Translations under genes and position numbers: made by a program
NCBI GenBank assembly: GCA_002497905.1
Contig: DAFJ01000073.1
Span: 3,929-67,928, forward strand
Length of the DNA: 64,000 nucleotides
From: Euryarchaeota archaeon UBA251
GTDB taxonomy: Archaea; Thermoplasmatota; Poseidoniia; Poseidoniales; Thalassarchaeaceae
Reading direction: 5' to 3'
The notes under the pieces: generated by a model
Seen by the model: only the letters and a program-made list of their open reading frames with translations
What the model was told of the DNA's origin: nothing
Database searches by the model: none
In this document: positions 7,038-63,236 of the stretch, piece after piece
Numbering within the stretch: position 1 is the first letter of the stretch
How the letters are laid out: each line of letters starts with the position of its first letter

Positions 7038-8516
7038 TCATCCCTTGATGACAGCGATTGGAGTCAGACGGGCGACAGGTCGGGCGAGTCCTGCTTGGGA
7101 AGTAAGACGAATCACGTCGTCTACATCTTTGTACGCATTAGGAGCCTCTTCCGCGATGACTCGCGGTGTCCGTGCTCGAACTTCAATCCCTTTCGATTGG
7201 AGATCAGTGATGAGTTTCTCTCCGTTGATTGTTTCACGAGCCGCTTTTCTAGATAGTCGCCGTCCTGCTCCGTGGCAGGATGAAGCGAAGGCTTGATTCG
7301 ACCCAGACTTGGGCCCAGCGAGAACCCAAGAGGCAGTTCCCATATCTCCAGGTACGAGAACGGGTTGGCCTACACCGGAGAATCGAGAAGCTAGTTCAGG
7401 ATGGTCTCCTCCTAGTGCTCGAGTTGCTCCTTTGCGATGTACACAGCATCGACAAGATACGCCATGTACCCGATGATCCTCGATTTTTGCGATATTGTGA
7501 CTTACATCGTAGATTAGATTCACTTCGGTATCGCCACCGGAAAACTTCCGCATAGTGCGTCGGAGTCTTTCGGTCAGCGCTGATCGATTTGCAAAGGCGT
7601 AGTTTCCTGCTGCATGCATCGCATCGAGATAGGCTTCTCCCTCTTTACTATGAATCGGAGCGGCAGCTAGTTGGCGATCAGGGAGTCGATGCCCCCAGGA
7701 TTCTGCATGCCATGTATCTCCATCCTTTTGATACTTAGACTCGATTGCCTCGACATGTTCGCTGCAAACCTGGTGTCCGAGACCTCTGGACCCTGTATGG
7801 ATCATTGCAGTGAGTCCTCCTTCAACGAGGCCGAAGGATTTTGCAGCCTTCGGATCGACGATTTTGTCTACTACTTGTACCTCAAGGAAGTGGTTCCCGC
7901 TACCCAACGTTCCGAGTGCTTTCATTCCTCTTTCAATAGCCCTCTCTGATACATTCCTCTCTTCGGATTCAAGCAATCCATTACTCTCAATTGCTTCGAG
8001 GTCCTTGTCATTCCCAAGGCCAAGATCAACGGCCGCTTCTGCACCTCTGGATAGGATCTGATCCATCTGATGTTTCTTGAGGTCCCATCCTCCTTTCGAG
8101 GAGGCGCCTGCTGGCACTGCGTTGAACAGTCGTCTTGCCATCTCTTTGAGATTAGATCCCTCGGGTTTCGGTAGATCAATGGATAGAAGGCGCACTCCAC
8201 AGTTTATGTCGAATCCGACGCCTCCAGGAGAAATACTTCCTCCTAACTCTCCTGCTTCGATGTCTGTTGCAACAACGCCCCCAATAGGGAATCCATATCC
8301 GTAGTGCCAATCAGCCATGGCCCAAGCGTCACCTACTATGCCTGGCAAACTTGCCGTATTGACAACCTGTTGAGGAGATCTATCGTCGCTCAGGTCATTC
8401 CACTGAGCCTCATCCGCAATCATGCGGGCATCAGTTAGCATCTGCCCATGCTTCTTGATTCGAATCGTAACTTCATCTTCCCGAATCGCATGATTACGCC
8501 ATTCGGGCTCATCCAT
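7038..8516 (-). CDS. rtcB: RNA-splicing ligase RtcB
   Basis: RtcB signature blocks read by eye: GYGFPIGGV, GVGFDINCGVR, GSGNHFLEVQ, HTGSRGLGHQV, CHGAGR. Start taken at ATG 8516 (MDEPEWRNH...), giving 492 aa. The track extension to 8810 overlaps alaS. Confidence 0.9.
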   Translation of the reverse strand: MDEPEWRNHAIREDEVTIRIKKHGQMLTDARMIADEAQWNDLSDDRSPQQVVNTASLPGIVGDAWAMADWHYGYGFPIGGVVATDIEAGELGGSISPGGVGFDINCGVRLLSIDLPKPEGSNLKEMARRLFNAVPAGASSKGGWDLKKHQMDQILSRGAEAAVDLGLGNDKDLEAIESNGLLESEERNVSERAIERGMKALGTLGSGNHFLEVQVVDKIVDPKAAKSFGLVEGGLTAMIHTGSRGLGHQVCSEHVEAIESKYQKDGDTWHAESWGHRLPDRQLAAAPIHSKEGEAYLDAMHAAGNYAFANRSALTERLRRTMRKFSGGDTEVNLIYDVSHNIAKIEDHRVHGVSCRCCVHRKGATRALGGDHPELASRFSGVGQPVLVPGDMGTASWVLAGPKSGSNQAFASSCHGAGRRLSRKAARETINGEKLITDLQSKGIEVRARTPRVIAEEAPNAYKDVDDVIRLTSQAGLARPVARLTPIAVIKG

Positions 8517-8633
8517 GTTCTGACGATATGGTGTCGCTTCAAGTCGATTGCGGAAGGTTCGCCCACTTAATGGCTGGATTTCGGGTGGCCTTGAAGTGCT
8601 TCGGTCGGGTCCAAGGGATATCGAGGTGAGGCC

Positions 8634-11492
8634 ATGGCGTTCGGAGATATCGATGCCCCATACTTCCACGAGAATGGATTCGTTCGAACTCGCTGTCGAG
8701 TATCGGAACTTTGGTTCTGGACAAGAGATGAGGATAGGACGACTTCCGGTGACACGGATGAAGATGAATACACTTTCATTGGCGCACCGATTATCAAGGG
8801 ATTTGATCAAAGGGGTAAGGCGTTGAAGGATGCGATGCGCGAGGCATTCCTAGAATTCTTCGAGAAAAGGTCCCATTTACGAGTAGCCCCCTACCCAGTA
8901 ATAGCTCGATGGCGTGACGATATTCATCTTACAATCGCCAGTATTGCAGATTTCCAACCTCATGTTACTTCCGGAGAAGTCCCTCCTCCTGCCAATCCAT
9001 TGACTATCTCTCAGCCCTGTATCCGTCTAACTGATGTGGCTGCAGTAGGCCGTTCGGGCCGTCATCTTACAACTTTCGAGATGATGGCTCATCATTGCTT
9101 TAATCGTCCACAGGATGGTGATATTCACTACTGGATAAACGAGACAATCCGTTTCTGTGATGTGCTCTTTACAGAGGTTCTCGGAATCGATCCCATGGAG
9201 ATTAGTTATGTTGAGAATCCGTGGTCAGGTGGAGGGAATGCCGGTCCGGCTGTTGAAGTCATTGTTGGCGGTCTTGAACTAGCTACTCTTGTTTTCATGA
9301 ATCTCAAAGAAGACGAGACCGGTGATGTTGAAATTAAGGGTGTTCGATATAGTGAGATGCCATTACAGATCATAGATACAGGTTATGGATTAGAGCGTTT
9401 TTGTTGGGCTGCTGCTGGCACCCCAACGATTTACGAGGCTATCTATCCAGAGACCGTTTCATGGCTTCGTGAACTTTCATCTTTTGATGAACGCTTGAGT
9501 ACACTTGGCGATGTAGATGTGGATTTACTGTTAGCGGAACTTAGTCGTCTTGCAGGGATTTTGAATATTGATGTTGGAACAGATGTAGATGCGTTGTACG
9601 TCCGATTAATTGAACGCCTTTCGGAACGAAATGTCTCTCTTGATGTGGCTACGCTGAAATCAATCACAGAGCCACTCTCTTCCATCTATGCTATCCCTGA
9701 TCATATGCATGCTTTGTGTAACATGCTCAATGATGGCCTAGTTCCATCCAATGCAAAGGCCGGATATCTCGCTAGGATGATGGCACGTCGCGCATGCCGT
9801 ATGAAGGACGATCTTGGACTTACAATTGGTCTCGATGAAATTGGTGCTCATCACATCGATGTCAATTTGTCCGGTTCGATTGAACCTAAATCACGTCAGA
9901 ATATCCTAACGATTCTTGCTTTAGAGGAATTACGATATCGTGAGATGCTTAGAGCAGGACAAGCTGCTGTAAGAACGGCGTTCAAGGATATTCCTTCAGA
10001 TGCTAACAAGGTTCCCTCTGAGATTTTGTTTCGGCTCGCTGAGGAGCGTGGTTTGCAACCAGAGATGGTTGTCAGTATTGCATACGAGGCAGGTTGGCCG
10101 AATGTAACCGTCCCTGTCGGTTTTGCTGCGGATATGGCTGCTCGTCATGCAGAGCAAGTCAGGATGCTTGCAAAGCGCAAGGGTGGTGATGGAACCGGGC
10201 TTGGAGCGGGTCATCCTGCTACTATACGTTCATTCTATGATGACACTGCAGCAGTCCAATTTGATGCGAAGGTACTCTCTTGCATTGAAGGAATTGATGC
10301 TATTTCAACAGGCTCTGAATCTCTTGGCAATGCGACGCATGCTATAGTTCTCGATCGTACCTTGTTTTACCCTGAGGGCGGGGGGCAACTTTCAGATCAT
10401 GGTATTCTTTCAGATGGGTCGGCCTCAGTACGAGTTGTTGATGTCCAAATCGATGGTGATGTAATCTTACATCTGACAGATGGACCTCTGGCGACTGGTT
10501 CGGTTCAGGGTGAAATTGACTGGTCTCGAAGGAAGCAACTTATGGATCACCACACTGCTGTTCACATTGTAGGAGGTGCCGCTCGTCAGATTTTAGGAGA
10601 TCATATTTGGCAAGCCGGGTCAAACAAAGGTGCTAGATACGCACGTCTTGACATCACTCATCACAGTCGTCTTGAGCGCGAGGTACTAGATGCAATAGAG
10701 GACTTGGCAAACGAAGTCGTTGCTTCAAGTCCGACTGTGGAGAAGTTACTAATTCCTCGCGCTGAAGCTGATGCAAACTTTGGTTTCGAACTCTATCAGG
10801 GCGGACCCCCAAAGCATTCTGAAATTCGTGTGATTCGTATTGGTGAATTCGATGTTCAGGCATGTGGAGGTACTCATCACGATGATGCAGGCATGGTGGA
10901 TTACGTCCGTGTCATCCGTTCGAATCTTGTGCAAGATGGAGTAGAACGACTCCACATTCTTGCAGGTTCGGCAGCACGAGAACATGCAAAGCAACAGGAG
11001 GATCTACTGTCGCGTAGTGCTGATGTTCTTGGTGTTCAAGCGGATGATCTCCCGGCTACAGTAGGGCGTTTCTTCAATGAATGGAAAGAGCAGCGGAAGA
11101 GAATCGAAGCTCTAGAAGCAGAGATTGTCAGACTTCGTACCTCTGGTAGTGATGGCGGAACCACAGAGGTAGATGGGGTTAGAATTGTTGTAATGGAAGT
11201 CGATGGTGGTATGAAGCAGATGCAAGCTATGGTCAAGGAGCTCACCTTAGACCCTTCAAATCCAACTATTGCAGTCCTAGGCAGTCGAGATGGAGGAGGA
11301 AAATTACTTGCTGCAGTCACCGAGGGAACAGAAGCGACTAACAGGGTTGATGCTGGTTCGCTAATTCGTGAGATAGCCCCGCATATTTCGGGTGGTGGCG
11401 GAGGTCGTCCAACATTCGCTCAAGCCGGTGGATCAAATCCCAATGGTCTCGATGCGGCCCTTGATGCCGCTCGAACTATTCTTGGATTGTAA
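8634..11492 (+). CDS. alaS: Alanine--tRNA ligase, archaeal type
   Basis: ENGFVRTRC...FWT, YPVIARWRDDIHLTIASIADFQPHVTSGEVPPPANPLTISQPCIRL, editing-domain HTAVH...CGGTH, and a C-terminal DHHA1-like GGGGGRPTFAQAGG. GAGGTGA Shine-Dalgarno-like sequence 6 nt before the ATG. Confidence 0.93.
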   Translation: MAFGDIDAPYFHENGFVRTRCRVSELWFWTRDEDRTTSGDTDEDEYTFIGAPIIKGFDQRGKALKDAMREAFLEFFEKRSHLRVAPYPVIARWRDDIHLTIASIADFQPHVTSGEVPPPANPLTISQPCIRLTDVAAVGRSGRHLTTFEMMAHHCFNRPQDGDIHYWINETIRFCDVLFTEVLGIDPMEISYVENPWSGGGNAGPAVEVIVGGLELATLVFMNLKEDETGDVEIKGVRYSEMPLQIIDTGYGLERFCWAAAGTPTIYEAIYPETVSWLRELSSFDERLSTLGDVDVDLLLAELSRLAGILNIDVGTDVDALYVRLIERLSERNVSLDVATLKSITEPLSSIYAIPDHMHALCNMLNDGLVPSNAKAGYLARMMARRACRMKDDLGLTIGLDEIGAHHIDVNLSGSIEPKSRQNILTILALEELRYREMLRAGQAAVRTAFKDIPSDANKVPSEILFRLAEERGLQPEMVVSIAYEAGWPNVTVPVGFAADMAARHAEQVRMLAKRKGGDGTGLGAGHPATIRSFYDDTAAVQFDAKVLSCIEGIDAISTGSESLGNATHAIVLDRTLFYPEGGGQLSDHGILSDGSASVRVVDVQIDGDVILHLTDGPLATGSVQGEIDWSRRKQLMDHHTAVHIVGGAARQILGDHIWQAGSNKGARYARLDITHHSRLEREVLDAIEDLANEVVASSPTVEKLLIPRAEADANFGFELYQGGPPKHSEIRVIRIGEFDVQACGGTHHDDAGMVDYVRVIRSNLVQDGVERLHILAGSAAREHAKQQEDLLSRSADVLGVQADDLPATVGRFFNEWKEQRKRIEALEAEIVRLRTSGSDGGTTEVDGVRIVVMEVDGGMKQMQAMVKELTLDPSNPTIAVLGSRDGGGKLLAAVTEGTEATNRVDAGSLIREIAPHISGGGGGRPTFAQAGGSNPNGLDAALDAARTILGL

Positions 11493-18787: not shown

Positions 18788-20458
18788 TCAAGACATACGT
18801 TCTAATTGCCAGTCAGTAAGATTCTCAAGAATTACTCTAGCCTCGGATTTTTTGAGTTTTGCGAGGTGCACATGGGCGGTAGCATGGTGCTCCATGGCCC
18901 GCGTCCTCCCATAATCGATTGAGCCAACCGATTCCATTTCCTTAATTGCCTTCGAGAGCAAGTCCTTGCCAGATTCCCCCTTTCCAAAGATTGCGTGAAA
19001 TGTAGGGAGAGATGCAGGGTCTTGCCTTAGTGCATGAATCGCCATTAGTGTCCGCTTCCCCTCCAATACGTCACTTCCAGCAGGCTTACCAAGTGTCTCA
19101 GTATCGCCCGTAATGTCGATTATATCGTCCATCAACTGGAAGCAGAGTCCGGTCTCTAGGCCCCACTTTCGACAAGCCTCTTGGATATCGGTAGAAGCAC
19201 CTGCGAGCATAGCTCCAGTCAAAGCACAGGTCTCAAACATGGCTGCTGTCTTTCCACCAATCATCCGAAGATATTCTTCCTCGGATACCAGATCCTCTCG
19301 ATTCTCGAAATCCATGTCCATTTGTTGTCCTTCTGAGACATTTCGTACCATGCGCCCAATTACCCGTACTAGATCTCGCATCATCTCGCCACGTATGTCC
19401 TTGGATTCTGCAATCATTTCGAAGGCGAGAGCAAGCATTGCGTCCCCTGCATTGATTGCCGTAGGCATATCGTAGGCGATATGGACCGCAGGACGCCCTC
19501 GTCGAATAGGGTCATTGTCCATTATATCGTCATGGACGAGTGTGAAGTTGTGGATGATTTCAATGGCGGCTCCAAGGTCGTGATGTCCAGGGTGGTGGTG
19601 CCCTACAGCCTCACCTACAAGGCTTGGAAGAACAGCACGAAGTCGCTTCCCTCCACCCTCGATGAGGTGCATCATAGCGCCTGCGAGACGTGGCTCAGTA
19701 CTCTTTTCGATTGCTCGAGCGATACATTGTTCCGCTGCAACCCGATGCCTCTCCATCATTGAGAGTCCTGCACGATCTGGCCTTTCTTGAATGAATCGAT
19801 GGATTACTCCGTCGACATGTTTCGACATATCGTCTATGTCACCCCACCAATCTTTCAGTAGATTGATTCGAATCAGATCAAACCAAGGCGCTATTACCAA
19901 TTCACCATTGTTGTGGGCCTTGACCATGTCTTCAAGTTCGTCTTGAGTTACCCAACGACATTCATCGATTTCGTTCGGATTAGGATTCGCTTCGACATTT
20001 GCTCGAGTCACGAGAATATGATCGATTTCGTGTTCAACCCAAACCTCGTTCATTCGTGCTTCGTACTCCATGCGTGTAACAAATTGAAGAGATTCCTGAG
20101 GTATATTACCCATGGGAATCCCTAATTCCTGTTCCATCTTTCTTACTGCAGCGTTCCTGACACCTGAGGCATCATCTGTTTCACGCTCTCCGTTGATATC
20201 TAGAGGGTGACTACAGCACGAGTTCGCCCAGACGCCTGGGAAGGTAATTTTGTCACTGGCTCTTTTTTGGAGGAGCAGACGGTTTTGGTCATCAAAAATC
20301 AGAACGGAGAATGCGCGATGACGCAAGCCTGCACCTCGGTGACAATCCAACTTGCTAGCAGATCCGATGGGCATGTCTTCTTCATCTACGAGTATGCACA
20401 TCTCATCCATCATGTCGGCTTGTTCAGGGTCTTCCCCCTCAAGCACGTCACCAGCCAT
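18788..20458 (-). CDS. Fusion protein: type 1 isopentenyl-diphosphate isomerase (N) + geranylgeranyl/polyprenyl diphosphate synthase (C)
   Basis: N-terminal half: HRAFSVLIFDDQNRLLLQKRASDKITFPGVWANSCCSHP and EHEIDHILV (IDI type 1, Nudix fold). C-terminal half: GGKRLRAVL, first Asp-rich motif LVHDDIMDNDPIRRGRP, second motif FQLMDDIIDITGD. Confidence 0.85.
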   Translation of the reverse strand: MAGDVLEGEDPEQADMMDEMCILVDEEDMPIGSASKLDCHRGAGLRHRAFSVLIFDDQNRLLLQKRASDKITFPGVWANSCCSHPLDINGERETDDASGVRNAAVRKMEQELGIPMGNIPQESLQFVTRMEYEARMNEVWVEHEIDHILVTRANVEANPNPNEIDECRWVTQDELEDMVKAHNNGELVIAPWFDLIRINLLKDWWGDIDDMSKHVDGVIHRFIQERPDRAGLSMMERHRVAAEQCIARAIEKSTEPRLAGAMMHLIEGGGKRLRAVLPSLVGEAVGHHHPGHHDLGAAIEIIHNFTLVHDDIMDNDPIRRGRPAVHIAYDMPTAINAGDAMLALAFEMIAESKDIRGEMMRDLVRVIGRMVRNVSEGQQMDMDFENREDLVSEEEYLRMIGGKTAAMFETCALTGAMLAGASTDIQEACRKWGLETGLCFQLMDDIIDITGDTETLGKPAGSDVLEGKRTLMAIHALRQDPASLPTFHAIFGKGESGKDLLSKAIKEMESVGSIDYGRTRAMEHHATAHVHLAKLKKSEARVILENLTDWQLERMS

Positions 20459-21316: not shown

Positions 21317-21355
21317 AGCCTTCCCAGGGATTTCTCATTGATGATGGTGCGCACA

Positions 21356-21363
21356 CATATTCA
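21356..21363 (+). promoter_or_regulatory. Candidate TATA-like box (CATATTCA) for ORF 21389-21712
   Basis: Centred about 30 nt upstream of ATG 21389. The identical octamer lies at the same distance upstream of the thiolase ATG. Confidence 0.3.
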
Positions 21364-21388
21364 TCCGTTCCACAGTGTTCGGCAGGGC

Positions 21389-21712
21389 ATGGCGCCCACC
21401 ATCGATGAGTTCCGGCGATACCTGCAGGCGCGTAGAAACGATCTCGATGCAATCGTTGATCCCGATGAACGTGAGCGTGTTCGAGTGCGAATAGATGCTG
21501 CACTCCAAGAGGCATTAGACTTCTCGGCAGCAGTAGAAATTAGAGAGGAACTCAAGAGTCGAGTATTCGAAGAAGTTGATTCATCAGCGCGCCTAATTGA
21601 AGCCGCTGAATCGAGACCTATTGAGCGCGTAGACGGTGATGGCTGCTCTAAGTGCGATGCTCCGTTAGAGGCAGACATTGAGTTTTGTCCAGCCTGTGGT
21701 CACAGGCCTTGA
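21389..21712 (+). CDS. Small acidic protein with C-terminal zinc ribbon (hypothetical)
   Basis: C-terminus CSKCDAPLEADIEFCPACGHRP. Start taken at ATG 21389 (MAPTIDEF...) from the promoter spacing. The track start 21338 is a TTG that abuts the ipk start. Confidence 0.45.
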   Translation: MAPTIDEFRRYLQARRNDLDAIVDPDERERVRVRIDAALQEALDFSAAVEIREELKSRVFEEVDSSARLIEAAESRPIERVDGDGCSKCDAPLEADIEFCPACGHRP

Positions 21713-23670: not shown

Positions 23671-24696
23671 ATGTGTGCCGCCTCATGTAGGCCACTGATG
23701 TTCAACCGACGTGGTCGAGAAGAGGCGACGAAGAATCTCCAAGTCGATGAGGACGGCGACTGTTCTCGATGTGGGGGGGATGCTCAACCGTCGAGCATTC
23801 AAGGCTACCTTAAGTGCGTTCGATGTGAATACGAATGGCCAGATCCAAACGCTGTATCTTCTGGCCCGAAACGCGAGACAATCCATGATGAGCAGAAGAA
23901 GGTCGAGGAGTTCAAGCAGGAACTTGAGAAGGGAAGTCTTCGCGGTGTCCTTGGTATCGAATCTCAATTGAGCAATGAGCAAGAAGCGACTCTTGGTCGT
24001 TTACAGGATAAATGGATGGATGGACTGGTAGGTACTTTCAACGCGGCTGAAGATGAGCGCAAGCCGCTGATGATTTCCTTCGATGCAGAGGACAACATCG
24101 TCGGAACAGACCTCGCCATCATCTCAGTGCTCGGAAATGAGTTCGATGGTGGCGAGGAAATCCGTATCGAATACCCTGGTCAGGATACCGAGTTCTACAG
24201 CATGGATGCTCGTGACGACAGAGGTTGGCGCGTTGGTCGTACAATCTCCGATACATGTCGAAACATTGCATCCATCATCAATCGCAAATCCACAATCGTT
24301 CATGCAGAGGGTGTTGATGATACAATCGTGTTTGAGCCACGTGATGCCAGTATCAATCCTGGAAGTGTCGTAATCTTCGTGGACGATCCAGGTGGCAAGA
24401 ACATGCTCCTAGAACGGGATGGCCGTGTTATCGATGTAGATGCTATGATGACGATTGAGGACTATCGTGAGATGCTCGGGCTTGTTCTCGATGATGGCGT
24501 CATCACACCCTCAGAAGATGAACTTCTGTGGATTATGAGATCAAATCTTGGTATCACAGACGAGCAGCATATGCAGCTTCTCATCAATCGATTTGGCAAC
24601 GGGGTCATCAAAGAGTGTCCCGCATGCCATGGCATGATTGCCTATCTCCCAGATCACGGTGGATGGTGGTGTGAACCCTGTCAGTCGTGGGTCTAA
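23671..24696 (+). CDS. Hypothetical protein with zinc ribbons at both termini and a TerB/DjlA-like helical segment
   Basis: N-terminal CSRCGG...CVRCEYEW and C-terminal CPACHGMIAYLPDHGGWWCEPCQSW. The segment GVITPSEDELLWIMRSNLGITDEQHMQLL resembles TerB-type repeats. Alternative start ATG 23698. Confidence 0.55.
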   Translation: MCAASCRPLMFNRRGREEATKNLQVDEDGDCSRCGGDAQPSSIQGYLKCVRCEYEWPDPNAVSSGPKRETIHDEQKKVEEFKQELEKGSLRGVLGIESQLSNEQEATLGRLQDKWMDGLVGTFNAAEDERKPLMISFDAEDNIVGTDLAIISVLGNEFDGGEEIRIEYPGQDTEFYSMDARDDRGWRVGRTISDTCRNIASIINRKSTIVHAEGVDDTIVFEPRDASINPGSVVIFVDDPGGKNMLLERDGRVIDVDAMMTIEDYREMLGLVLDDGVITPSEDELLWIMRSNLGITDEQHMQLLINRFGNGVIKECPACHGMIAYLPDHGGWWCEPCQSWV

Positions 24697-24754
24697 TCAC
24701 GTCGCGCTGTTCATATACTGCCACACATAGCCCTCCTTCCAAGGTGATGGATAC

Positions 24755-25783
24755 ATGGCTGGAGACAACGACCTATACATTGGAATCGACCTCGGAACTT
24801 TCCGTTCCGTTTTGACTTCGAGTGCTGGCCATGAGGAACAAGTCCTCACTGTTGTTGGCACCCCTAAGGACCCGATTGCTCGCAACATGTTGGGCAAGGA
24901 TGTTCTCTTTGGTGAAGAGGCACTGAAGAACCGTCTTGCTCTGAACTTGTATCGCCCTCTCGAGCACGGTGTGATCAAGGATACACCTGAGGACAAGAAG
25001 TTCATTGCACATTTCATCAATCACCTGATCAATCTTGGTGACCCCGAAGATTACGACAACGTTGTTGCCGTCATCGGCGCTCCAGCTGAAGCATCATTCA
25101 CTGATCAGACAGCGATTTTCGATGCTGCATCTGGTAGCGTTAACGCCGCCATGATTATCTCTGAGCCTTTCGCAGTTGCTTACGCTCTTGACATGATTGG
25201 CCACACAATCGTCATCGACATAGGTGCTGGAACTTGTGATATCGCTAGAGTATACGGTACTATTCCCGGCCCCGATGACCAGATGCATACTAGTTATGCT
25301 GGCGATCATATCGATAATACACTCATCGCAGAGGTCCAGAAGAAGTACGCTGGCGCACAGGTCACCAAGGACATGGCGCGCCGTTGGAAGCAGCAGTATT
25401 CCTTCGTCCGCACTGCAATGCCCGATGCGCCGATTGTTGTCGACTTTAGTATCGAAGGAAAGGCAATGTCACTAGACATCACCGATTGCATCCAGAGAGC
25501 TTGTGAGTCAATCGTCGATCCGATCGTTGCCAATGTGAAGGCATTGATTTCCTCAAGTAACCCCGAGTTCCACAATGAGTTCCGTAACAACATGGTTCTT
25601 GCTGGGGGTGGATCAGGAATCAAGGGCCTGAACATCATGATTGAAGATCGCCTCGGCGATATCGGTGAATGCACAGTTCAAGTCGTTGATGACCCCGTAA
25701 TGCTCGGTGCTCTCGGCGGACTTCGCCTGTCCATGGAAGTGCCTACAGACATGTGGTCTTCGCTAACCCTAGCCTCTCGATGA
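24755..25783 (+). CDS. Actin-fold ATPase of the MamK / MreB-like family
   Basis: Phosphate-1 LYIGIDLGTFRS, VVGTPKDPIARNMLG, YRPLEHGVIKD, SEPFAVAYAL, phosphate-2 IVIDIGAGTCDI, adenosine motif MVLAGGGSGIKGL. The block order and wording match my recollection of MamK better than MreB or ParM. TCATATAC at 24711-24718 and GGTGAT 6 nt before the ATG. Confidence 0.8.
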   Translation: MAGDNDLYIGIDLGTFRSVLTSSAGHEEQVLTVVGTPKDPIARNMLGKDVLFGEEALKNRLALNLYRPLEHGVIKDTPEDKKFIAHFINHLINLGDPEDYDNVVAVIGAPAEASFTDQTAIFDAASGSVNAAMIISEPFAVAYALDMIGHTIVIDIGAGTCDIARVYGTIPGPDDQMHTSYAGDHIDNTLIAEVQKKYAGAQVTKDMARRWKQQYSFVRTAMPDAPIVVDFSIEGKAMSLDITDCIQRACESIVDPIVANVKALISSSNPEFHNEFRNNMVLAGGGSGIKGLNIMIEDRLGDIGECTVQVVDDPVMLGALGGLRLSMEVPTDMWSSLTLASR

Positions 25784-25787
25784 GCAA

Positions 25788-26378
25788 TTATTCCTGCTCT
25801 TCTTGGTTTCGTGCTGATGGGACTAGAGGCTGTTCGCAGTGTGGACAGACATCGTGAGGTGTCATTTGTTCTACAACGATTGCAAGCAGACTCGTACATG
25901 AGGGGCAACTGGCGATTACCTCATTGGAACGTGCAAGCATGCTCTGAGCTAAACCCGTCGAACCTGATGTGTACCACGAACGGTATCGGGGATCCTCAAT
26001 TCTGCGTGTACGGATGACTCCGAAAATCCCTAGGATGAGAAGTAGAAATCCATCAATGAATATTCCAGAAGACAACCAGAGTGCTCCGAATAGGAAGAGT
26101 ACAGTTGAACTGATTATGTATGACAACTGTCCAATCCTCATTGCAATCATATTTGCTCTCCTTGAGAATAGAAGTGCAGCAACTGCATGGAATGTGGCGA
26201 AGGCGTACCCTAGTATCGTCATCATTTCATGCATTGATCCTAGTACCCAAGCAGAAGTAAAGCCGTTCAATGCAATGAAAAGGGACTGCTGCCGATGGGC
26301 TTTTCTCATCTGTTCGTCCATTGAGCGCAGACCATCCATGTACATCTGAATCGGTGCTGAGACATCAGTATTGGCCAT
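25788..26378 (-). CDS. Four-TM membrane protein with C-terminal zinc ribbon (hypothetical)
   Basis: Hydrophobic helices followed by CPSCTSLLAIVVEQMTPHDVCPHCEQP. Convergent with the actin-like gene (4-nt gap). Confidence 0.55.
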   Translation of the reverse strand: MANTDVSAPIQMYMDGLRSMDEQMRKAHRQQSLFIALNGFTSAWVLGSMHEMMTILGYAFATFHAVAALLFSRRANMIAMRIGQLSYIISSTVLFLFGALWLSSGIFIDGFLLLILGIFGVIRTRRIEDPRYRSWYTSGSTGLAQSMLARSNEVIASCPSCTSLLAIVVEQMTPHDVCPHCEQPLVPSARNQEEQE

Positions 26379-33859: not shown

Positions 33860-33876
33860 TCTGATTTGGGGAGAAT

Positions 33877-33883
33877 GATATAC
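33877..33883 (+). promoter_or_regulatory. Candidate TATA-like box (GATATAC) for P-type ATPase gene in a 45-bp divergent intergenic region
   Basis: Centred 25 nt upstream of ATG 33905. A second A/T box CCATATGA (33885-33892) lies about 30 nt from the opposite-strand OPT ATG 33859. Confidence 0.3.
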
Positions 33884-33904
33884 TCCATATGATTAGGACA
33901 GTAA

Positions 33905-38064: not shown

Positions 38065-38895
38065 ATGCGTACGGATGTCATTGGTCGTGTGTCATTTGCG
38101 AATTGTGATCCGTTGTTCCATGGTCTTGACCCTAAATGGAAGGTTCTACCTGCACCTCCTTCGTGGTTGACTGGGCATCTCCTGCGTGGTGAATGCCTAA
38201 TTGCACCAATCCCAATGGCTGACTTAGCGAGAAATGCTGACACTCTCTGTGCGATTGATTCAATTGGAATTGCCTCCGATGGAGGGGTTGGGTCTGTACT
38301 CCTGTTTGGTGATTGTCCCGTTGAGGAAATGAGGGATATTGCAGTACCTACGGATTCCTCTACTTCGAGGACATTGCTACCATGGCTTCTATCTGAGCGC
38401 GGATTCCGGCCACGACTCATAGAGATGGGTCCGAATCTAGAATCTATGCTGGAACGATGCGATGGGGCTCTATTGATTGGTGATCGTGCAATCCATCACG
38501 CTCACCTTCAGCCAGACCTCGTTCGAATGGATCTTGGAGATGAATGGTTAGACATCACTGAGATGCCAATGGTATTCGGTGTATTCTGTGCCCGCCAAGA
38601 TGCGGATAATACAGCGGTTAGTGATGCTATTTCAGATCTTGAGAGCGCCCTATCTAGATTTGAGAATGAGCCTTTGTTTAGACAGGAGGTAATCGCAAGA
38701 TCAGCAAAAGTCACACGATTTAGTGTAGGTCGAATGGAGACCTATTTTGGATCCGAGGTAAGGAATCGATTGACACCTAAAGATCGTGCTAGTATGCAAC
38801 GATTTGCGACAGATGTCTGCGGCCTTGAGGGTGAAGTTCCCTGGTGGGGCGATAATCAGTCAGAACCAGTTAGTCGCCGCAATGCTGCATCGTAA
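38065..38895 (+). CDS. mqnA: Chorismate dehydratase MqnA (menaquinone via futalosine)
   Basis: N-terminus MRTDVIGRVSFANCDPLFHGL resembles the MqnA start (RIGRISYLN..P). PBP-like length of about 276 aa, next to the mqnE/C-like gene. Start taken at ATG 38065 rather than the track start 37903. Confidence 0.7.
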   Translation: MRTDVIGRVSFANCDPLFHGLDPKWKVLPAPPSWLTGHLLRGECLIAPIPMADLARNADTLCAIDSIGIASDGGVGSVLLFGDCPVEEMRDIAVPTDSSTSRTLLPWLLSERGFRPRLIEMGPNLESMLERCDGALLIGDRAIHHAHLQPDLVRMDLGDEWLDITEMPMVFGVFCARQDADNTAVSDAISDLESALSRFENEPLFRQEVIARSAKVTRFSVGRMETYFGSEVRNRLTPKDRASMQRFATDVCGLEGEVPWWGDNQSEPVSRRNAAS

Positions 38896-41420
38896 TCTTC
38901 GTCATCATCTGTGTTATCGAATTCGGAGCTATCCGGATTAACATCACTAGCTTCGAGAATCTCTTCCATTGTTACATCTCTAGTGACTCGTTTTGTCACC
39001 TTTCGCTTGGATGATCGACTTACGCGTCGTCGTCGAGTAGGTTCAGATGTCTCTGGTTCAGAGTATTCGTCTACTTCTTGTCTCTGATTAGGTGGTGCAC
39101 GAGGAGCTTTCTTCTGAATAGGTTCCTCGTTTGTTTTCTGTCGTTGATCAGGTGGTCGACGAGGTGCAGCCTTCGAGGTCACTTCTTCTTCGTTCCAGAT
39201 TTCTAGTTCTTCATCGAAATCCTCGTCGTCTTGCATTGTTTGTACGCTACCAATTGCCATTTCAAACTCTTCGAAATCAATGACTCCATTTCCATCTTCG
39301 TCCAAACTTTCCACTAGTGCTTCCAGTTGTGCCACTGGTAACGCAGCAATCTTGAGCGAGCGAAGTCCTGCGACTAGTTCATCTGATTCGAGTGTCCCGT
39401 TACCGTCTTCGTCAAAGCGATTAAACAGGTCCCGGACACTCATTTCATTATCTATCATCCATGACTCAAGTTTCTCCATTACTTGATCATAGACAAAGAG
39501 TGCACCACAATCAGAGCAGAGTAAAGCACCGGGAGAGTTCATCGATCCACATACCTCACAAATCTCCTCAAGTTCATACTCATAGGTCATGCGTCGCTTC
39601 AAAATTAGGAATATACTCGCGCCAACGGCGATTATGAGGGGGATAATTAGCAATGGTTGTAGAAGTGTGTCGAGAAAACTTCCTACAAGTGTGGGTTCTG
39701 GTTCTTCGGGAGGAATCACTTTGAGATCTAATACATCGCTCATGGTCCAAACGGTGGAGCTGTTCCTCAGTTCTCCCTCTACCATGATGTGGACAACTGC
39801 TGGTCTACTATCGATGCTCTGCAGGATACTACCATCTCTTGATTCGAGACCTTGGAGTATCCGTACATCATAGGGTTCCACCATGCGTGTCGGGTCAATC
39901 TTCAACGTTGTAGTCCAAGTCATCCTCACATGACTCAACCAACCTACGCCGTTTTGAAGAGTTGAAGTTCCACTCAATCCCTCGCTGATTTCACAACTCG
40001 TCTCTGCTCCCCAAGGGACGCTACCATTGATCCTCACAATGTCAATCCACTCTTGTGCGATGGAATCTAAATCCGTCGGACCACACAGTTGTCGTGCCAT
40101 CATTCCAGCTTCTGAGAAGGAAGTTGTTGCATCGTCAGTAAGGGCGACTGCAGATATGGTGCGAATGTCTCTTGAAAATTCCAACGGCAAGGTAATTGTC
40201 TCCTTGACAGTTAGTGTGCCATTCGGAGAAAGGTCAAGTTCAATCTGCCGTATGTTATCTAAGTCGGCATTGACGCTACAATCTGAACCCTCTGCGCAGG
40301 TGTTGTCGAATGAGTCCGGAATCATGTCACCGTCATCATCATTGTCCAATGAGTCCGGAATACCATCTCCGTCTGTGTCGACTCCATCAGCGGTAACTCC
40401 TGTTTCGTGAGGTATAGAATGGTGTATCGGGATGATTCCTGTATTGGTTGCGAAGGCAATTTCAGAAGAATCTGCAGATAGTGAAAATACATGTGTCTGC
40501 ATACCGAGCTGCATTCTCCAATTGAGTTGTTGATTGATTGTGTTCCAGGATTCCAACCATTGTTGTTCACCAACCGTTCCGGTTAAGGCGATAATCTCGT
40601 CATCGAGAAAGATTTCCTCAAATTGAATGACAGATGATTCCGTTTGAATGATTGATAGGAATGAGTAGGGATCTGTAGCCTGTCGTTGAACGATTGCATC
40701 ATTGAGTGACCATATTACTTCAGCACCATTGTGGTTGAATGCGCAGTCAGATATGGGTGCATCCACTGACCATGAATGAAGGATAGATAGGTCATCGAGA
40801 TTGAGGAGAGTTGCGAAATGGTCACTGTCATCCGTTAATCCAACGATTACGCGCGAAGTTGTGTTATCTACTGCAGTGCATCCGACTTCCCCTCCAAGAT
40901 CCACAGATGCCTCTAACTGGAGCCCGCTTTCGTTGATGTTGTATACTACTAGGTTATCATCTGCTGTCGAGAAGATTACCTGCGTTGAATTAACAGCTTG
41001 GACGCGAATTCCATCTACCGGTTCTTCTGTGTGGATTCGCTTGTCTGTGTGGTCTGCAACTTTCAGGGCAGTCACTGACGGGAGACCTGACATCGGTTGA
41101 ACTTGGGCTACAATCAACTTGGATGAATCAGTTGTCCAAGTGATATCGATAATCTCATGCCCACTAAATTCACCCATGGCGGTGGAGAAGAGGAGCTCTC
41201 CATCTGTTCTCCAGACGTTCACGTAGACCATGTCTGCCGAGGCAAACATTGAGCCATCAGGTGAGTACGCAACATCGATGATATCGGTGGCTGGCCTGCC
41301 ATCGAGTCGATTCATGTGTAGGCTATCATCGAGCACATGCACTGGCTCAGGTATGTCGGCTACGACGACAGGCAGGAGCAATAGCATGACAAGACATCCG
41401 CTGAGAACGCGAGCCCGCAT
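38856..41420 (-). CDS. Large type-I membrane protein: signal peptide, beta-propeller-like ectodomain, TSP3-like Asp repeats, TM helix, cytoplasmic zinc ribbon + EF-hand pair, charged tail
   Basis: Signal MRARVLSGCLVMLLLLPVVVADI (ATG 41420; the track TTG 41462 is an alternative). DVAYSPDGSMFASAD WD-like blades. DTDGDGIPDSLDNDDDGDMIPDSFDN. TM LLIIPLIIAVGASIFLIL. CEVCGSMNSPGALLCSDCG. EF loops DEDGNGTLESDE and DEDGNGVIDFEE. Confidence 0.8.
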   Translation of the reverse strand: MRARVLSGCLVMLLLLPVVVADIPEPVHVLDDSLHMNRLDGRPATDIIDVAYSPDGSMFASADMVYVNVWRTDGELLFSTAMGEFSGHEIIDITWTTDSSKLIVAQVQPMSGLPSVTALKVADHTDKRIHTEEPVDGIRVQAVNSTQVIFSTADDNLVVYNINESGLQLEASVDLGGEVGCTAVDNTTSRVIVGLTDDSDHFATLLNLDDLSILHSWSVDAPISDCAFNHNGAEVIWSLNDAIVQRQATDPYSFLSIIQTESSVIQFEEIFLDDEIIALTGTVGEQQWLESWNTINQQLNWRMQLGMQTHVFSLSADSSEIAFATNTGIIPIHHSIPHETGVTADGVDTDGDGIPDSLDNDDDGDMIPDSFDNTCAEGSDCSVNADLDNIRQIELDLSPNGTLTVKETITLPLEFSRDIRTISAVALTDDATTSFSEAGMMARQLCGPTDLDSIAQEWIDIVRINGSVPWGAETSCEISEGLSGTSTLQNGVGWLSHVRMTWTTTLKIDPTRMVEPYDVRILQGLESRDGSILQSIDSRPAVVHIMVEGELRNSSTVWTMSDVLDLKVIPPEEPEPTLVGSFLDTLLQPLLIIPLIIAVGASIFLILKRRMTYEYELEEICEVCGSMNSPGALLCSDCGALFVYDQVMEKLESWMIDNEMSVRDLFNRFDEDGNGTLESDELVAGLRSLKIAALPVAQLEALVESLDEDGNGVIDFEEFEMAIGSVQTMQDDEDFDEELEIWNEEEVTSKAAPRRPPDQRQKTNEEPIQKKAPRAPPNQRQEVDEYSEPETSEPTRRRRVSRSSKRKVTKRVTRDVTMEEILEASDVNPDSSEFDNTDDDEDYDAALRRLTGSD

Positions 41421-41458
41421 GCGAATAGCAAGGATACGCCTGTTATATCCGTATGGTC

Positions 41459-41935
41459 TCAATCAGCATAATTGAGACGTTTTGATGAGACATACTCTAG
41501 TAAATCGAGGGCAACTTCGCAGGATTCTGCTACTACAACAGCATCGTCATCCACGAATTCCTCTAGGGTTGCGAGAGCTGTTCTATCTCCGATTGCCCCT
41601 AAGGCTTCAGCTGCTTCATGGCGCACCATGACATCTTCCTCTCCATCGGCCAACCGATCGATTAGATGTGGGACTGCTGCAGAATCCTGCATCTGCCCCA
41701 TGACATACGCAATCTCGTGTTTGAGTAGCGCAGAATCAGATTCGAATGCTGCGGCTAACGCATCTACAGCATCTTTCCCACCAATATTTCGAAGCGAGAA
41801 TAGGGCACGCATTCGTAGAAACATTCTAGCAGATTCATCGCAGAGCGTGGATTTCAGCGAATATATGTCATTCTCATCACTGGGTGGTGCAGGGTCGACA
41901 GAATCAAACTCTGAACGTTCAGGTCGTTGGTCCAC
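41459..41935 (-). CDS. Half-length deoxyhypusine hydroxylase (DOHH)-like HEAT-repeat protein
   Basis: Two His-Glu motifs in DOHH-type context (SALLKHEIAYVMGQMQDSAAVP and DVMVRHEAAEALGAIGD), plus RMRALFSLRNIGG, AESCEVALDLLEY and terminal NYAD. 158 aa. GTG start 2 nt after the mqnD stop. Confidence 0.75.
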   Translation of the reverse strand: MDQRPERSEFDSVDPAPPSDENDIYSLKSTLCDESARMFLRMRALFSLRNIGGKDAVDALAAAFESDSALLKHEIAYVMGQMQDSAAVPHLIDRLADGEEDVMVRHEAAEALGAIGDRTALATLEEFVDDDAVVVAESCEVALDLLEYVSSKRLNYAD

Positions 41936-61037: not shown

Positions 61038-63236
61038 TTGGCTGATGATGAGAAAGATATGGCCACCTGTGGCGCTTGCCAGACCGAGGTTCCCGCGGAT
61101 TCCGAGAGTTGTCCAAACTGCGGCGTCTCTTTCTCTGGTGTCGTCGAGGATAACTTAGGCGAGTGTGGCGCATGTTCAGCCCTCGTCGCACTTGATTCGA
61201 AGACATGTCCTCAGTGTGGCGTACTCTTCGTGCATGATGATGTGGTTGCAGTTCTCGCCGATTGGATGACATCTACAGGCCTTGATGTTGAGACCTTGTT
61301 CGGACGTTTGGATACTGATGGAAATGGTCACATCGACACTGAGGAATTGCGCACCGGGTTGATTGCTCTCAAAATCGCGGCGTTGCCACCAGTCGAAGTC
61401 GACCGTCTTGTTGCAGAGATTGATCAAGATAACAATGGTGAAATTGAGCTTGGTGAACTACAATTCATCCTTTCCAGCGGTTCTATGCAGTATGCGGAAT
61501 CTGTTCTTAATCGCGTAATGAAGAAGCACGATATCTCTGATGCAGATGCTTTCCTCCAATTCGCGCGTTCCTTTGATGAAAATGAGAATCGATATTTGGA
61601 TCAGAAGGAACTCAAAAAGGCGGCTGAAGCCTTTGTTGACAAACCCGAGCCAGAAATGGTGGATGAACCTGAAGATGTTGAAGAAGAGGAGGTGGAAGAC
61701 GAATCTCCAGATGACGCTGAAGAGGTAGAGGCAGATTCCGAAGAGGAGGTAGAAGACGAATCTCCAGATGACGCTGAAGAGGTAGAGGCAGATTCCGAAG
61801 AGGAGGAAACTGAGGAAGTCACAGAATCCGAGGATTCCGATGCGGATGAAGAGATGGACTCAGCCTTTGCTACAATGATTTCCGAATCTACGGATGAGGA
61901 AGCTGTTGAGTCCGAAGATGATGAATCAGAAGACGATACTGATTCTGACGACGATTCCGACGATGATGAAGAGCAGGAATCTTCTGGAAAGGGTCGTTCT
62001 TTCGATCCTAGTTCGCTTATCGATGATGACGATGACAATGTCGGCGATGACGACGAAGAAGAATCGTCCGATGACATGGATGACCTCATTGATTCCATCG
62101 ATGATGATGGCAGTGATGGCGAAGATACTGATGAGGAGTCCGAAGAGGAGGAACTTGCTCCGATGGATCAGGAGAGTGCCGATGGCATCATGCTGGAAAT
62201 CGGTCGAAATCTGAACGAGTCAAACACAACCATTGACGCACTATTCGAAGGATTTGATGTTGATGAGAGTGGGGAATTGGATCACTATGAGTTTGCAAAG
62301 GGTCTCAAGAGCCTTGATTTAGCGGATCTCCCTCCACATGAGATTGATCGTATCGTCAAGTTCCTGGACAAGGATGACAACGGTAAAATCGATTTGAATG
62401 AACTCCGTTCAAACTTCAACGAATGGAATGTGCCTATTTCTGATCTTAAGCCCAAGCGTTTTGAGCCCGCAGGTTGGCAGAAGTTCTTCATGAAACAATA
62501 TGAGAATGTCTTCCCAGTTATGTATGTGCTATTGGCTCTGTTCATTGCTGGTCTTCTTGTCAACGCGCTTGTAGGGCCAGTTGATGGCTCTGGAGGAAAT
62601 ATCGCATTTGATGGAGAAGTCGGTGAATTCTCAGTTGAGAATAATTTCTACGTCGAACCTGGCGAAATATATCCTTGTGATAAGGCGATCCAGGTCACTA
62701 ATTGTGCGAACTCACTTACACCACTTGCTGGAGAGAATGGTTCCAGTTCAATGCCTAAGAATTTCTACTGGGATGGAATTGTCGGTATGGTCTTGGGCAT
62801 CGGTCTACTCATTGGAAGTGTGTATCTTCAACTTCAGACGAAGGGTTGGAGAGAGACAGTCCGTGCAGAACGAAAGGCAGCTTCTGAGGATTCAGAAGAT
62901 GATGAGGATTCCACCGAAGATGGATCGACAGATACAGATGATGCTGACGATGAGGAATCAGAAGAAGTTCCAGATGAAGACGCAGAAGATGCAGAAGACA
63001 CTGAAGTGGATGATGCAGAAGAAGAGGATTCAGATGAATCCGATGAGGCTGTAGAAGATGGCGGGGATGGAATTGACGTCGGAGACAGAGTCGGTGTGGA
63101 ACTTGAGGATGGCGAAGAGGCGTTTGGCGAGATTCTCGAATTCATCGAAGAAGACGACGAGGAATTCGTCGTTGTGTTACTCGACGATGGCGACGAGGTC
63201 GAGGTTGAGTTCGACATGATCTTCCTCGAGGAATGA
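61038..63236 (+). CDS. Two-TM membrane protein with two zinc ribbons, five EF-hand loops and long acidic repeats
   Basis: CGACQTEVPADSESCPNCG and CGACSALVALDSKTCPQCG. EF loops DTDGNGHIDTEE, DQDNNGEIELGE, DENENRYLDQKE, DVDESGELDHYE, DKDDNGKIDLNE. TM helices VFPVMYVLLALFIAGLLVNALV and IVGMVLGIGLLIGSVYLQL. TTG 61038 or ATG 61059 start. Confidence 0.8.
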   Translation: MADDEKDMATCGACQTEVPADSESCPNCGVSFSGVVEDNLGECGACSALVALDSKTCPQCGVLFVHDDVVAVLADWMTSTGLDVETLFGRLDTDGNGHIDTEELRTGLIALKIAALPPVEVDRLVAEIDQDNNGEIELGELQFILSSGSMQYAESVLNRVMKKHDISDADAFLQFARSFDENENRYLDQKELKKAAEAFVDKPEPEMVDEPEDVEEEEVEDESPDDAEEVEADSEEEVEDESPDDAEEVEADSEEEETEEVTESEDSDADEEMDSAFATMISESTDEEAVESEDDESEDDTDSDDDSDDDEEQESSGKGRSFDPSSLIDDDDDNVGDDDEEESSDDMDDLIDSIDDDGSDGEDTDEESEEEELAPMDQESADGIMLEIGRNLNESNTTIDALFEGFDVDESGELDHYEFAKGLKSLDLADLPPHEIDRIVKFLDKDDNGKIDLNELRSNFNEWNVPISDLKPKRFEPAGWQKFFMKQYENVFPVMYVLLALFIAGLLVNALVGPVDGSGGNIAFDGEVGEFSVENNFYVEPGEIYPCDKAIQVTNCANSLTPLAGENGSSSMPKNFYWDGIVGMVLGIGLLIGSVYLQLQTKGWRETVRAERKAASEDSEDDEDSTEDGSTDTDDADDEESEEVPDEDAEDAEDTEVDDAEEEDSDESDEAVEDGGDGIDVGDRVGVELEDGEEAFGEILEFIEEDDEEFVVVLLDDGDEVEVEFDMIFLEE
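61683..61796 (+). repeat. Two tandem copies of a 57-bp in-frame repeat (third copy partial)
   Basis: GAAGAGGAGGT(G/A)GAAGACGAATCTCCAGATGACGCTGAAGAGGTAGAGGCAGATTCC at 61683 and 61740. Encodes EEEVEDESPDDAEEVEADS. Confidence 0.9.

Follow-up and report, generated by a model that had tools for sequence, protein, structure and literature searches.

Our analysis of a 64,000-nucleotide stretch of the genome of Euryarchaeota archaeon UBA251 (contig DAFJ01000073.1; the whole stretch is hereafter the window) identifies an actin gene at positions 24755 to 25783 that, judged from sequence comparisons, is an order-wide, chromosomal and highly constrained MamK-like ATPase gene in a housekeeping context. 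We interpret its product as a housekeeping, vertically inherited MamK-like actin of the Poseidoniales that would form an ATP-driven positioning or cytoskeletal filament, with the protein encoded directly upstream, ZnR341, as its probable partner, and we give this interpretation as a whole a probability of about 0.7. The Poseidoniales (Marine Group II, MGII) are among the most abundant archaea of the surface ocean, and we know of no cultured representative. The actin lies outside any magnetosome context, so that its role must be something other than that of MamK in magnetosome-forming bacteria.

Sequence, fold and active site of the actin

An earlier note on this DNA had called a 342-residue open reading frame (ORF), had paired a series of its motifs with those of MamK, and had judged it nearer to MamK than to MreB, ParM or crenactin. 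The ORF lies exactly where that note had put it, on the plus strand, and every motif pair recurs in our HMMER alignment with MamK of Magnetospirillum (Paramagnetospirillum) magneticum AMB-1 (PDB 5JYG, 5LJV, 5LJW): LYIGIDLGT with LFLGIDLGT, VVGTPKDPI with VVGYPKDVI, SEPFAVAYAL with SEPFMVGYGL, IVIDIGAGTCDI with IIVDIGAGTTDI, TIPGPDDQ with TVPGPEDQ, QQYSFV with EQFSFV, LAGGGSGIKGL with FAGGGSRIRGL, and the C-terminal LRLS..P..W with LRLAEELPPQYW. The two proteins are of equal length, share the C-terminal LRL..P..W pattern, and align over 334 residues with indels of one residue and of two residues as the only interruptions; identity over the whole protein is 36%, below the impression given by the block matches.

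MamK of AMB-1 is the top match of the actin by sequence, profile and structure. Against the NCBIfam MamK model (NF040964) the actin scores 353.1 bits (E 1.3e-105), with residues 7-337 covering profile positions 1-330 of 335, while the other families follow at a distance: BeeR at 199, MreB at 82 and 73, salactin at 44.9 and FtsA at 23 bits. The best Pfam match is the generic MreB_Mbl family at 82 bits (gathering cut-off 27), followed by weaker Salactin, Actin and Volactin matches; the Salactin match, at 40 bits, passes that family's low gathering score and ranks under MreB_Mbl. In a phmmer search of PDB sequences the MamK entries 5ljw, 5jyg and 5ljv come first with E 1e-69 (238 bits), ahead of BeeR at 2e-42 and of MreB at 3e-14 or worse. 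An AlphaFold2 model built with 48 sequences reached a mean predicted local distance difference test score (pLDDT) of 89.7 and a predicted template modelling score of 0.88, and Foldseek placed MamK 5ljv and 5ljw at the top with template modelling (TM) scores of 0.87-0.91 and root-mean-square deviations of 2.1-2.5 Å, followed by BeeR at 0.79 and by MreB and eukaryotic actins at about 0.75. Sequence comparison thus shows a likeness to MamK that is specific and well past chance. No ParM-type family or structure appears among the top matches, the gene sits in a chromosomal housekeeping block rather than in a mobile element, a search of IMG/VR viral contigs with strict patterns returned no match, and a scan of the window for a second actin gene found none.

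By profile, structure-derived sequence and predicted fold, the protein is a member of the broad MamK-like (MamK/BeeR-related) group. It is not a MamK in the strict sense, since its 353 bits miss the 400-bit cut-off of NF040964; another Poseidoniales member scores 361 bits and a second Poseidoniales paralogue, P0127, 330 bits against the same model. The name "MamK-family actin" used in the earlier note therefore holds in that MamK is the closest characterized relative, and fails in that the score lies below the cut-off and the protein belongs to a clade of its own in our neighbour-joining (NJ) tree.

The ATPase active site is complete, with ATP-binding and catalytic residues all intact. The phosphate-1 motif GIDLGT occupies residues 10-15, the phosphate-2 motif DIGAGT residues 155-160 and the adenosine motif GGG residues 284-286; the catalytic E137 corresponds to MamK E143 and D155 to MamK D161, identical in both cases. 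Across 21 diverse Poseidoniales sequences D12, G14, T15, E137, D155, G157, G159, T160 and G284-G286 are invariant. The predicted fold, which has the four subdomains of actin in common with MamK, superimposes almost fully on it. Hydropathy analysis found no hydrophobic window in the actin, and no membrane-binding helix or loop. The MamK mutant A278D does not polymerize. At the equivalent position the window's actin has Asn274; among the sequences retrieved with AMB-1 MamK several carry D or E there, and the residue is uninformative because the column is variable.

Distribution, constraint and relatives of the actin

The earlier note had placed the gene in an archaeal chromosome with no magnetosome genes in view, had called for a check of whether its flanking genes are conserved, and had proposed that a filament system was recruited for another role. 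The archaeal assignment is correct: loci of 99% identity belong to Poseidoniales metagenome-assembled genomes (MAGs) labelled Euryarchaeota UBA40 and Thermoplasmatota, those of 91-92% include Candidatus Thalassarchaeaceae MAGs, and those of 72-76% come from Thalassarchaeaceae, Poseidoniaceae and MGII, which identifies the window as Poseidoniales chromosome, probably of the MGIIb group. The window itself encodes a primase small subunit, a PAN-type ATPase and RtcB, and an amino-acid-kinase-fold protein that we read as isopentenyl phosphate kinase is a further archaeal marker. Magnetosome genes are indeed out of view, as a Pfam scan of the 51 ORFs of at least 130 residues, plus the 124-residue ZnR124, matched no mam-type family (such as Cation_efflux, LemA, magnetochrome, HtrA/PDZ or MamA-type TPR). 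The neighbourhood is kept as well, with the entire block of ±8 kb syntenic in 55 species-level genome loci of both Poseidoniales families, Thalassarchaeaceae and Poseidoniaceae. Of the proposed recruitment, the absence of a magnetosome context stands, and the implication that magnetosomes came first does not, since most sampled members of the broad family are from hosts not annotated as magnetotactic.

The genes around the actin are those of a housekeeping region. Translation and RNA metabolism are represented by AlaRS, MetRS, prolyl-tRNA synthetase (ProRS), RtcB and Tpt1, replication and proteolysis by the primase subunit and the PAN-type ATPase, lipid and cofactor metabolism by a NUDIX-polyprenyl synthase fusion, a thiolase, CoaBC and enzymes of the futalosine (menaquinone) pathway, and central metabolism by a split transketolase and histidine degradation. 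Within 8-10 kb on either side of the actin no mam-type gene was found, and the housekeeping block is kept in more than 120 loci.

A protein search with the actin returned more than 5000 clusters at 90% identity. The best 120 are 72-93% identical to it; wherever an organism is given among them, it belongs to Poseidoniales, MGII, Thermoplasmatota or Euryarchaeota, and wherever a function is given, it reads "rod shape-determining protein MreB". In the block shared by the 55 genome loci the actin has changed least: in relatives where it retains 72-76% identity, ProRS has 61-76%, ZnR341 47-54% and the convergent membrane-protein gene TM196 24-41%. Ratios of nonsynonymous to synonymous substitution (dN/dS), calculated by the Nei-Gojobori method for window genes against three close relatives, are 0.005-0.016 for the actin, 0.024-0.032 for ZnR341, 0.025-0.032 for ProRS, about 0.07 for the thiolase, 0.07-0.11 for CoaBC and 0.07-0.17 for TM196. 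The actin is therefore the most constrained gene of its neighbourhood and is under extreme purifying selection.

The wider family was sampled by a homologue search among 1.84 billion representatives, which gave 1096 matches at E<=0.001, 130 of them below 1e-30. MamK-like relatives of 38-44% identity fall in clusters named Nitrospira sp., Gemmatimonadota, Acidobacteriota, Verrucomicrobiota and ANME-2/Methanosarcinales, the Nitrospira sp. protein being labelled "MamK family actin-like protein" by NCBI, and their scores against the MamK model, 330-425 bits, lie on both sides of the 400-bit cut-off. Most sampled members, including that of candidate division KSB1, are in organisms not annotated as magnetotactic, so that members of this family normally occur without mam genes. 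In an NJ tree of 107 sequences (337 columns, Kimura-corrected distances, 200 bootstraps, MreB as outgroup), the Poseidoniales actins are monophyletic with 100% bootstrap support; they join P0127 at 98% and a KSB1-type clade at 53%, and stand apart from the named MamKs of magnetotactic bacteria in a tree whose deep nodes are weak. The distance to crenactin, ParM, Ta0583, FtsA, salactin and volactin was judged by profile scores.

P0127, a 335-residue protein 45% identical to the window's actin and found in another gene context, represents a second type of actin carried by some Poseidoniales, and it appears as the sister of the main clade in the NJ tree. At its locus (L056, 8001-10381) the gene lies downstream of an S8 peptidase gene, with geranylgeranylglyceryl phosphate synthase and rhodopsin genes no more than 6 kb further downstream. 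It is directly followed by a gene for a 426-residue protein, a possible filament partner, that combines a coiled coil with an acidic C-terminal tail and matches no Pfam family.

The nearest relatives outside the Poseidoniales are giant bacterial proteins of 523-1232 residues, at 45-48% identity and 300-328 bits, whose C-terminal MamK-like actin domain is preceded by an N-terminal coiled coil, conserved and about 110 residues long, and by a long, disordered, low-complexity linker. Their gene context (UvrC, Ddl, Por_Secre_tail) is bacterial, and an actin neighbouring one of them clusters with a KSB1 protein. These proteins of KSB1 and the FCB group are thus the ones that group with the Poseidoniales clade in the tree, but they are fused, longer and bacterial. 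In one of their loci, L059, the giant-actin gene is followed by genes for a 346-residue actin, a DUF4388-Roadblock protein, two Roadblock/LC7 proteins and an Arf/Ras-like GTPase, a set that looks like a so far uncharacterized bacterial cytoskeleton and GTPase module. A comparison of the N-terminal extensions of the giant proteins with ZnR341 and TM196 by BLASTP gave nothing below E 0.03, and the fusions accordingly provide no evidence for a partnership of either protein with the actin.

MamK of AMB-1 is encoded in the mamAB operon, whereas the Poseidoniales protein is archaeal, sits in a housekeeping block and lacks partners of the MamJ or MamY type. BeeR of Opitutus terrae (PDB 8R2N), an actin that assembles into three-stranded tubes, is related to MamK and comes from non-magnetotactic Verrucomicrobiota (PMC11929497). 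It is the second-best PDB match of the actin and likewise occurs outside magnetotactic organisms, but the actin's score of 199 bits compares with a BeeR cut-off of 530 and the BeeR clade is separate in the NJ tree; several BeeR insertions and its disordered N-terminal extension of 30-50 residues are also missing from the Poseidoniales protein, whose actin core begins at residue 7. The MamK-like protein of Saltatorellus ferox (Saltatorellota) was seen along a filamentous structure in E. coli and in M. gryphiswaldense (10.1101/817700); it is bacterial, its host is also non-magnetotactic, and, likened here by description rather than by sequence, it offers by analogy a precedent for a role outside magnetosomes. 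Salactin of Halobacterium salinarum, which has been reported as the actin subfamily closest to MamK (PMC10746226), resembles the Poseidoniales actin in being archaeal, and forms dynamic filaments that serve a purpose other than cell shape; the match to it is very weak, however (44.9 bits against an NCBIfam cut-off of 400), and its long charged N-terminal tail is missing.

ZnR341, TM196 and the surrounding genes

The gene directly upstream of the actin encodes ZnR341, whose true start is probably M10 (position 23698). The protein carries two C4 zinc ribbons, one N-terminal (C31, C34, C49, C52) and one C-terminal (C316, C319, C334, C337), and in its homologues the cysteines of both ribbons are invariant along with many other residues. 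In the AlphaFold2 model the N-terminal half is helical and of low confidence, and residues from about 150 to 341 are confident (C-terminal pLDDT about 90), with a folded domain at about 150-311 followed by the C-terminal zinc ribbon. We found 244 homologues; the named ones among the best 120 are all from Poseidoniales, MGII or Thermoplasmatota, and a protein search together with a metagenome scan gave no relative outside the Poseidoniales, all hits having at least 47% identity and coming from the same order. Searches of Pfam, NCBIfam and PHROGs matched nothing besides the zinc ribbon, a profile search of PDB found a weak likeness to L37Ae-type zinc ribbons (E 0.007), and Foldseek against PDB returned only meaningless matches to flagellin and phage tail proteins, with TM scores of 0.2 or less.

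ZnR341 precedes the actin directly in every genome locus with room for it and in 71 of 72 metagenome loci, or 122 of 123 overall. The pair persists where the thiolase has been lost (L023, L026, L037 and others), and also in L103 (3887-8842), which has a different, 453-residue thiolase-like gene upstream. In L103 and the clade whose actins are 78-79% identical, TM196 and CoaBC are replaced and ProRS is inverted downstream of an intact pair. ZnR341 is under constraint on a par with ProRS and is confined to the same order as the actin, and its near-constant adjacency makes it a candidate partner of the actin.

TM196 is encoded convergently, with its stop codon 4 bp from that of the actin; the protein spans the membrane about four times and carries a C-terminal zinc ribbon (CxxC...CxxC) on the cytoplasmic side. 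Of 105 loci, 72 have beside the actin a convergent ORF that combines membrane-spanning segments with a zinc ribbon, and in the 78-79% clade other genes take its place. TM196 is a possible membrane anchor, and its tie to the actin is weak.

Upstream of the actin, a GGTGA-like ribosome-binding element is also present in the related loci. The sequence further upstream has diverged except for the motif TT(C/G)A(T/A)ATAC(C/T), which recurs at the same offset in most of 29 inspected loci and occurs once in the window; from this pattern we infer a putative TATA-type promoter serving the actin gene alone. A comparable element, ATGATATACT, lies about 35 nt before the start of a P-type ATPase gene (33905), within positions 33860-33904, so the motif may mark strong promoters in these archaea more generally.

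Several further features of the window are listed in Table 1. Zinc-ribbon genes are unusually dense near the actin, with ZnR124, ZnR341 and TM196 close by and a fourth further off, in the second of two large EF-hand genes; the domain content of these two suggests that their products are candidates for calcium-responsive proteins. The 5' ends of the RtcB and AlaRS ORFs share 177 nt and the RtcB domain begins only at residue 148, so at least one of the two start codons has probably been called too early.

Table 1. Positions of the actin gene, its signals and other features (window coordinates unless a locus is named)
Feature	Position	Strand	Description
MamK-like actin ATPase gene	24755..25783	+	uninterrupted ORF, 342 aa, ATG start
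AGGTGAT Shine-Dalgarno (ribosome-binding) site	24742..24748	+	6 nt before actin ATG; read from sequence
TATA-box-like element TTCATATACT	24710..24719	+	36-45 nt before actin start codon
ZnR341	23671..24696	+	soluble Poseidoniales-specific protein; candidate actin partner or adaptor
TM196	25788..26378	-	convergent membrane-protein gene; from hydropathy and sequence
ZnR124	21338-21712	+	zinc-ribbon gene
NUDIX (IPP-isomerase-like)-polyprenyl synthetase fusion	18788-20458	-	single 556-aa ORF; fusion kept in related loci
RtcB ORF	7038-8810	-	
AlaRS ORF	8634-11492	+	
EF-hand protein	38856-41462	-	868 aa; beta-propeller-like and EF-hand domains
EF-hand protein	61038-63236	+	732 aa; N-terminal double zinc ribbon, several EF-hands
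Giant actin-fusion loci	L059 4864-13315; L060 10001-12364		proteins P0122-P0139

Proposed mechanism, alternatives and implications

We propose that the actin would bind ATP and polymerize into cytoplasmic filaments, as characterized relatives do, with precedents in MamK (PMC13170167), BeeR (PMC11929497) and the Saltatorellus MamK-like protein (10.1101/817700). By analogy with these proteins, filament turnover would be driven by ATP hydrolysis through E137 and D155. The filament would serve as a track for positioning or organizing and would not guide envelope synthesis. ZnR341 would link it to cargo in the way that MamJ, ParR or AlfB serve other prokaryotic actins, and in some of the Poseidoniales TM196 may hold the system at the membrane. 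Zinc ribbons of the type found in ZnR341 are frequent in nucleic-acid-binding proteins. The zinc ribbons of the partner, the lack of a membrane element in the actin and the lack of linked envelope genes incline us slightly toward the nucleoid or a large cytoplasmic complex as the cargo; this choice is speculative, and shape control is nearly as likely. A still more specific version, in which ZnR341 and the actin, joined by TM196 in some of the Poseidoniales, constitute a Poseidoniales-specific cytomotive system with a double-zinc-ribbon adaptor and a nucleoid-like cargo, is a conjecture that we consider rather improbable as it stands.

Several observations weigh against our main interpretation. 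Polymerization, ATPase activity and contacts with ZnR341 or TM196 are argued from sequence, structural models and analogy. Because the block of ±8 kb is syntenic over much of the order, the adjacency of ZnR341 and the actin is only moderate evidence of partnership, and, with what looks like a promoter of its own, the actin need not be co-transcribed with ZnR341. ZnR341 showed no detectable similarity to known actin partners in Pfam, profile or fold searches, and the sole locus that departs from the pairing, L107 (2065-4822), has a ZnR341 homologue with no actin behind it. There, an inverted NUDIX-polyprenyl synthase gene follows ZnR341, which places an inversion breakpoint, or else a chimeric assembly join, between the two genes. 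No centromere-like, tandem or iteron repeats were found at 20-30 kb, within 10 kb of the actin, which leaves a DNA-segregation design of the ParMRC type unsupported. Finally, nodes of the NJ tree deeper than the KSB1 grouping all have less than 40% support, most of them less than 10%, so that the tree leaves the relation to true MamK unsettled.

Among the alternatives, two differ from our interpretation chiefly in the task given to the filament. In a DNA-segregation system like those of ParM, AlfA or salactin, ZnR341 would be a DNA-binding adaptor and the filaments would part chromosomes, and this version overlaps with ours so far that the cargo named is the sole difference. Segregation actins of prokaryotes are encoded beside their adaptors, and ZnR341 is found beside the actin almost without exception and has two zinc ribbons, of which one is weakly L37Ae-like; salactin, reported as closest to MamK, is archaeal and has been studied in connection with DNA partitioning (PMC10746226), and the actin has a weak PHROG match to a "partition protein" (E 3e-8). 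Against this, the flanking 10 kb contain no iterons or centromere-like repeats, the salactin score of 45 bits is far under its cut-off of 400, and DNA binding by ZnR341 is an assumption drawn from its sequence, so that we regard segregation as possible but unlikely. We hold a cell-shape cytoskeleton to be comparably doubtful. Filaments of the volactin, crenactin or MreB kind would lie beneath the membrane of a wall-less cell with a surface layer (S-layer), perhaps tethered by TM196, and the extreme constraint and housekeeping context are indeed typical of structural cytoskeletal proteins, 72 of 105 loci encode a zinc-ribbon membrane protein convergently beside the actin, and public annotation speaks of a "rod shape-determining protein". 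That annotation, however, is a mere fallback from the generic MreB_Mbl match of 82 bits, the actin lacks any helix or loop that would bind a membrane, no envelope-synthesis or S-layer genes are linked to it, and TM196 is poorly conserved and gone from the locus in a whole clade.

The remaining alternatives are far less probable. An actin-fold ATPase that does not polymerize, similar to a chaperone or a kinase, would fit the weak matches to Hsp70, HscA and EutJ, but these reach only 17-29 bits against 353 for MamK, the protein has no substrate-binding domain, and its fold is nearest to filament-forming actins, which makes this reading very unlikely. That the gene is an ordinary MreB orthologue guiding cell-wall synthesis is what the database names say and what the best Pfam match would suggest; this reading is effectively refuted by MreB scores of 82 and 73 bits against cut-offs of 293 (NF010539) and 366 bits (TIGR00904), by the PDB and fold comparisons, in which MamK leads MreB by E 1e-69 to 3e-14 and by TM scores of 0.9 to about 0.75, and by Pfam scans that found no mreC, mreD, rodZ, rodA or penicillin-binding protein genes in the window. 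Least probable of all is a true MamK whose magnetosome cluster lies elsewhere in the genome. MamK is the closest characterized protein, but the mamK of magnetotactic bacteria sits inside the mamAB cluster and this gene in a housekeeping block in more than 120 loci, its score is under the cut-off and its position in the NJ tree, which is weak at depth, outside the magnetotactic MamK clade, equally MamK-like genes occur in many non-magnetic lineages, and magnetosome gene clusters have been described only in Bacteria (PMC7602337).

MamK-related actins of non-magnetotactic bacteria (BeeR and those of the Saltatorellota) are already known and are so named by NCBI's pipeline, and archaeal proteins of the MamK branch received a passing mention in 2009 (PMC2651865). 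Our literature search found no paper on Poseidoniales cell biology and none on a Poseidoniales actin; an earlier mention of the latter is possible, and the archaeal-actin review PMC10955848 lay outside the scope of the search. The interest of the present case lies in an uncultured and ecologically important host, extreme conservation and a candidate order-specific partner.

In summary, our work describes an actin that is more constrained than a tRNA synthetase and present throughout its order, which points to an important, unstudied filament system in the Poseidoniales. The label "rod shape-determining protein MreB" is a systematic mis-annotation of MamK-like proteins that the present result helps to correct, and an archaeal branch is added to the growing picture in which MamK is a specialized representative of a broad family of positioning actins. 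The pair of zinc-ribbon protein and actin is small and can be tested without culturing MGII. If the more specific version set out above, which we consider rather improbable, is nevertheless true, ZnR341 and the actin, in part of the order with TM196, would form an archaeal counterpart to the logic of ParMRC or of MamK and MamJ, made from accessory proteins unrelated to theirs, in a still uncultured group that is among the most abundant archaea of the ocean.

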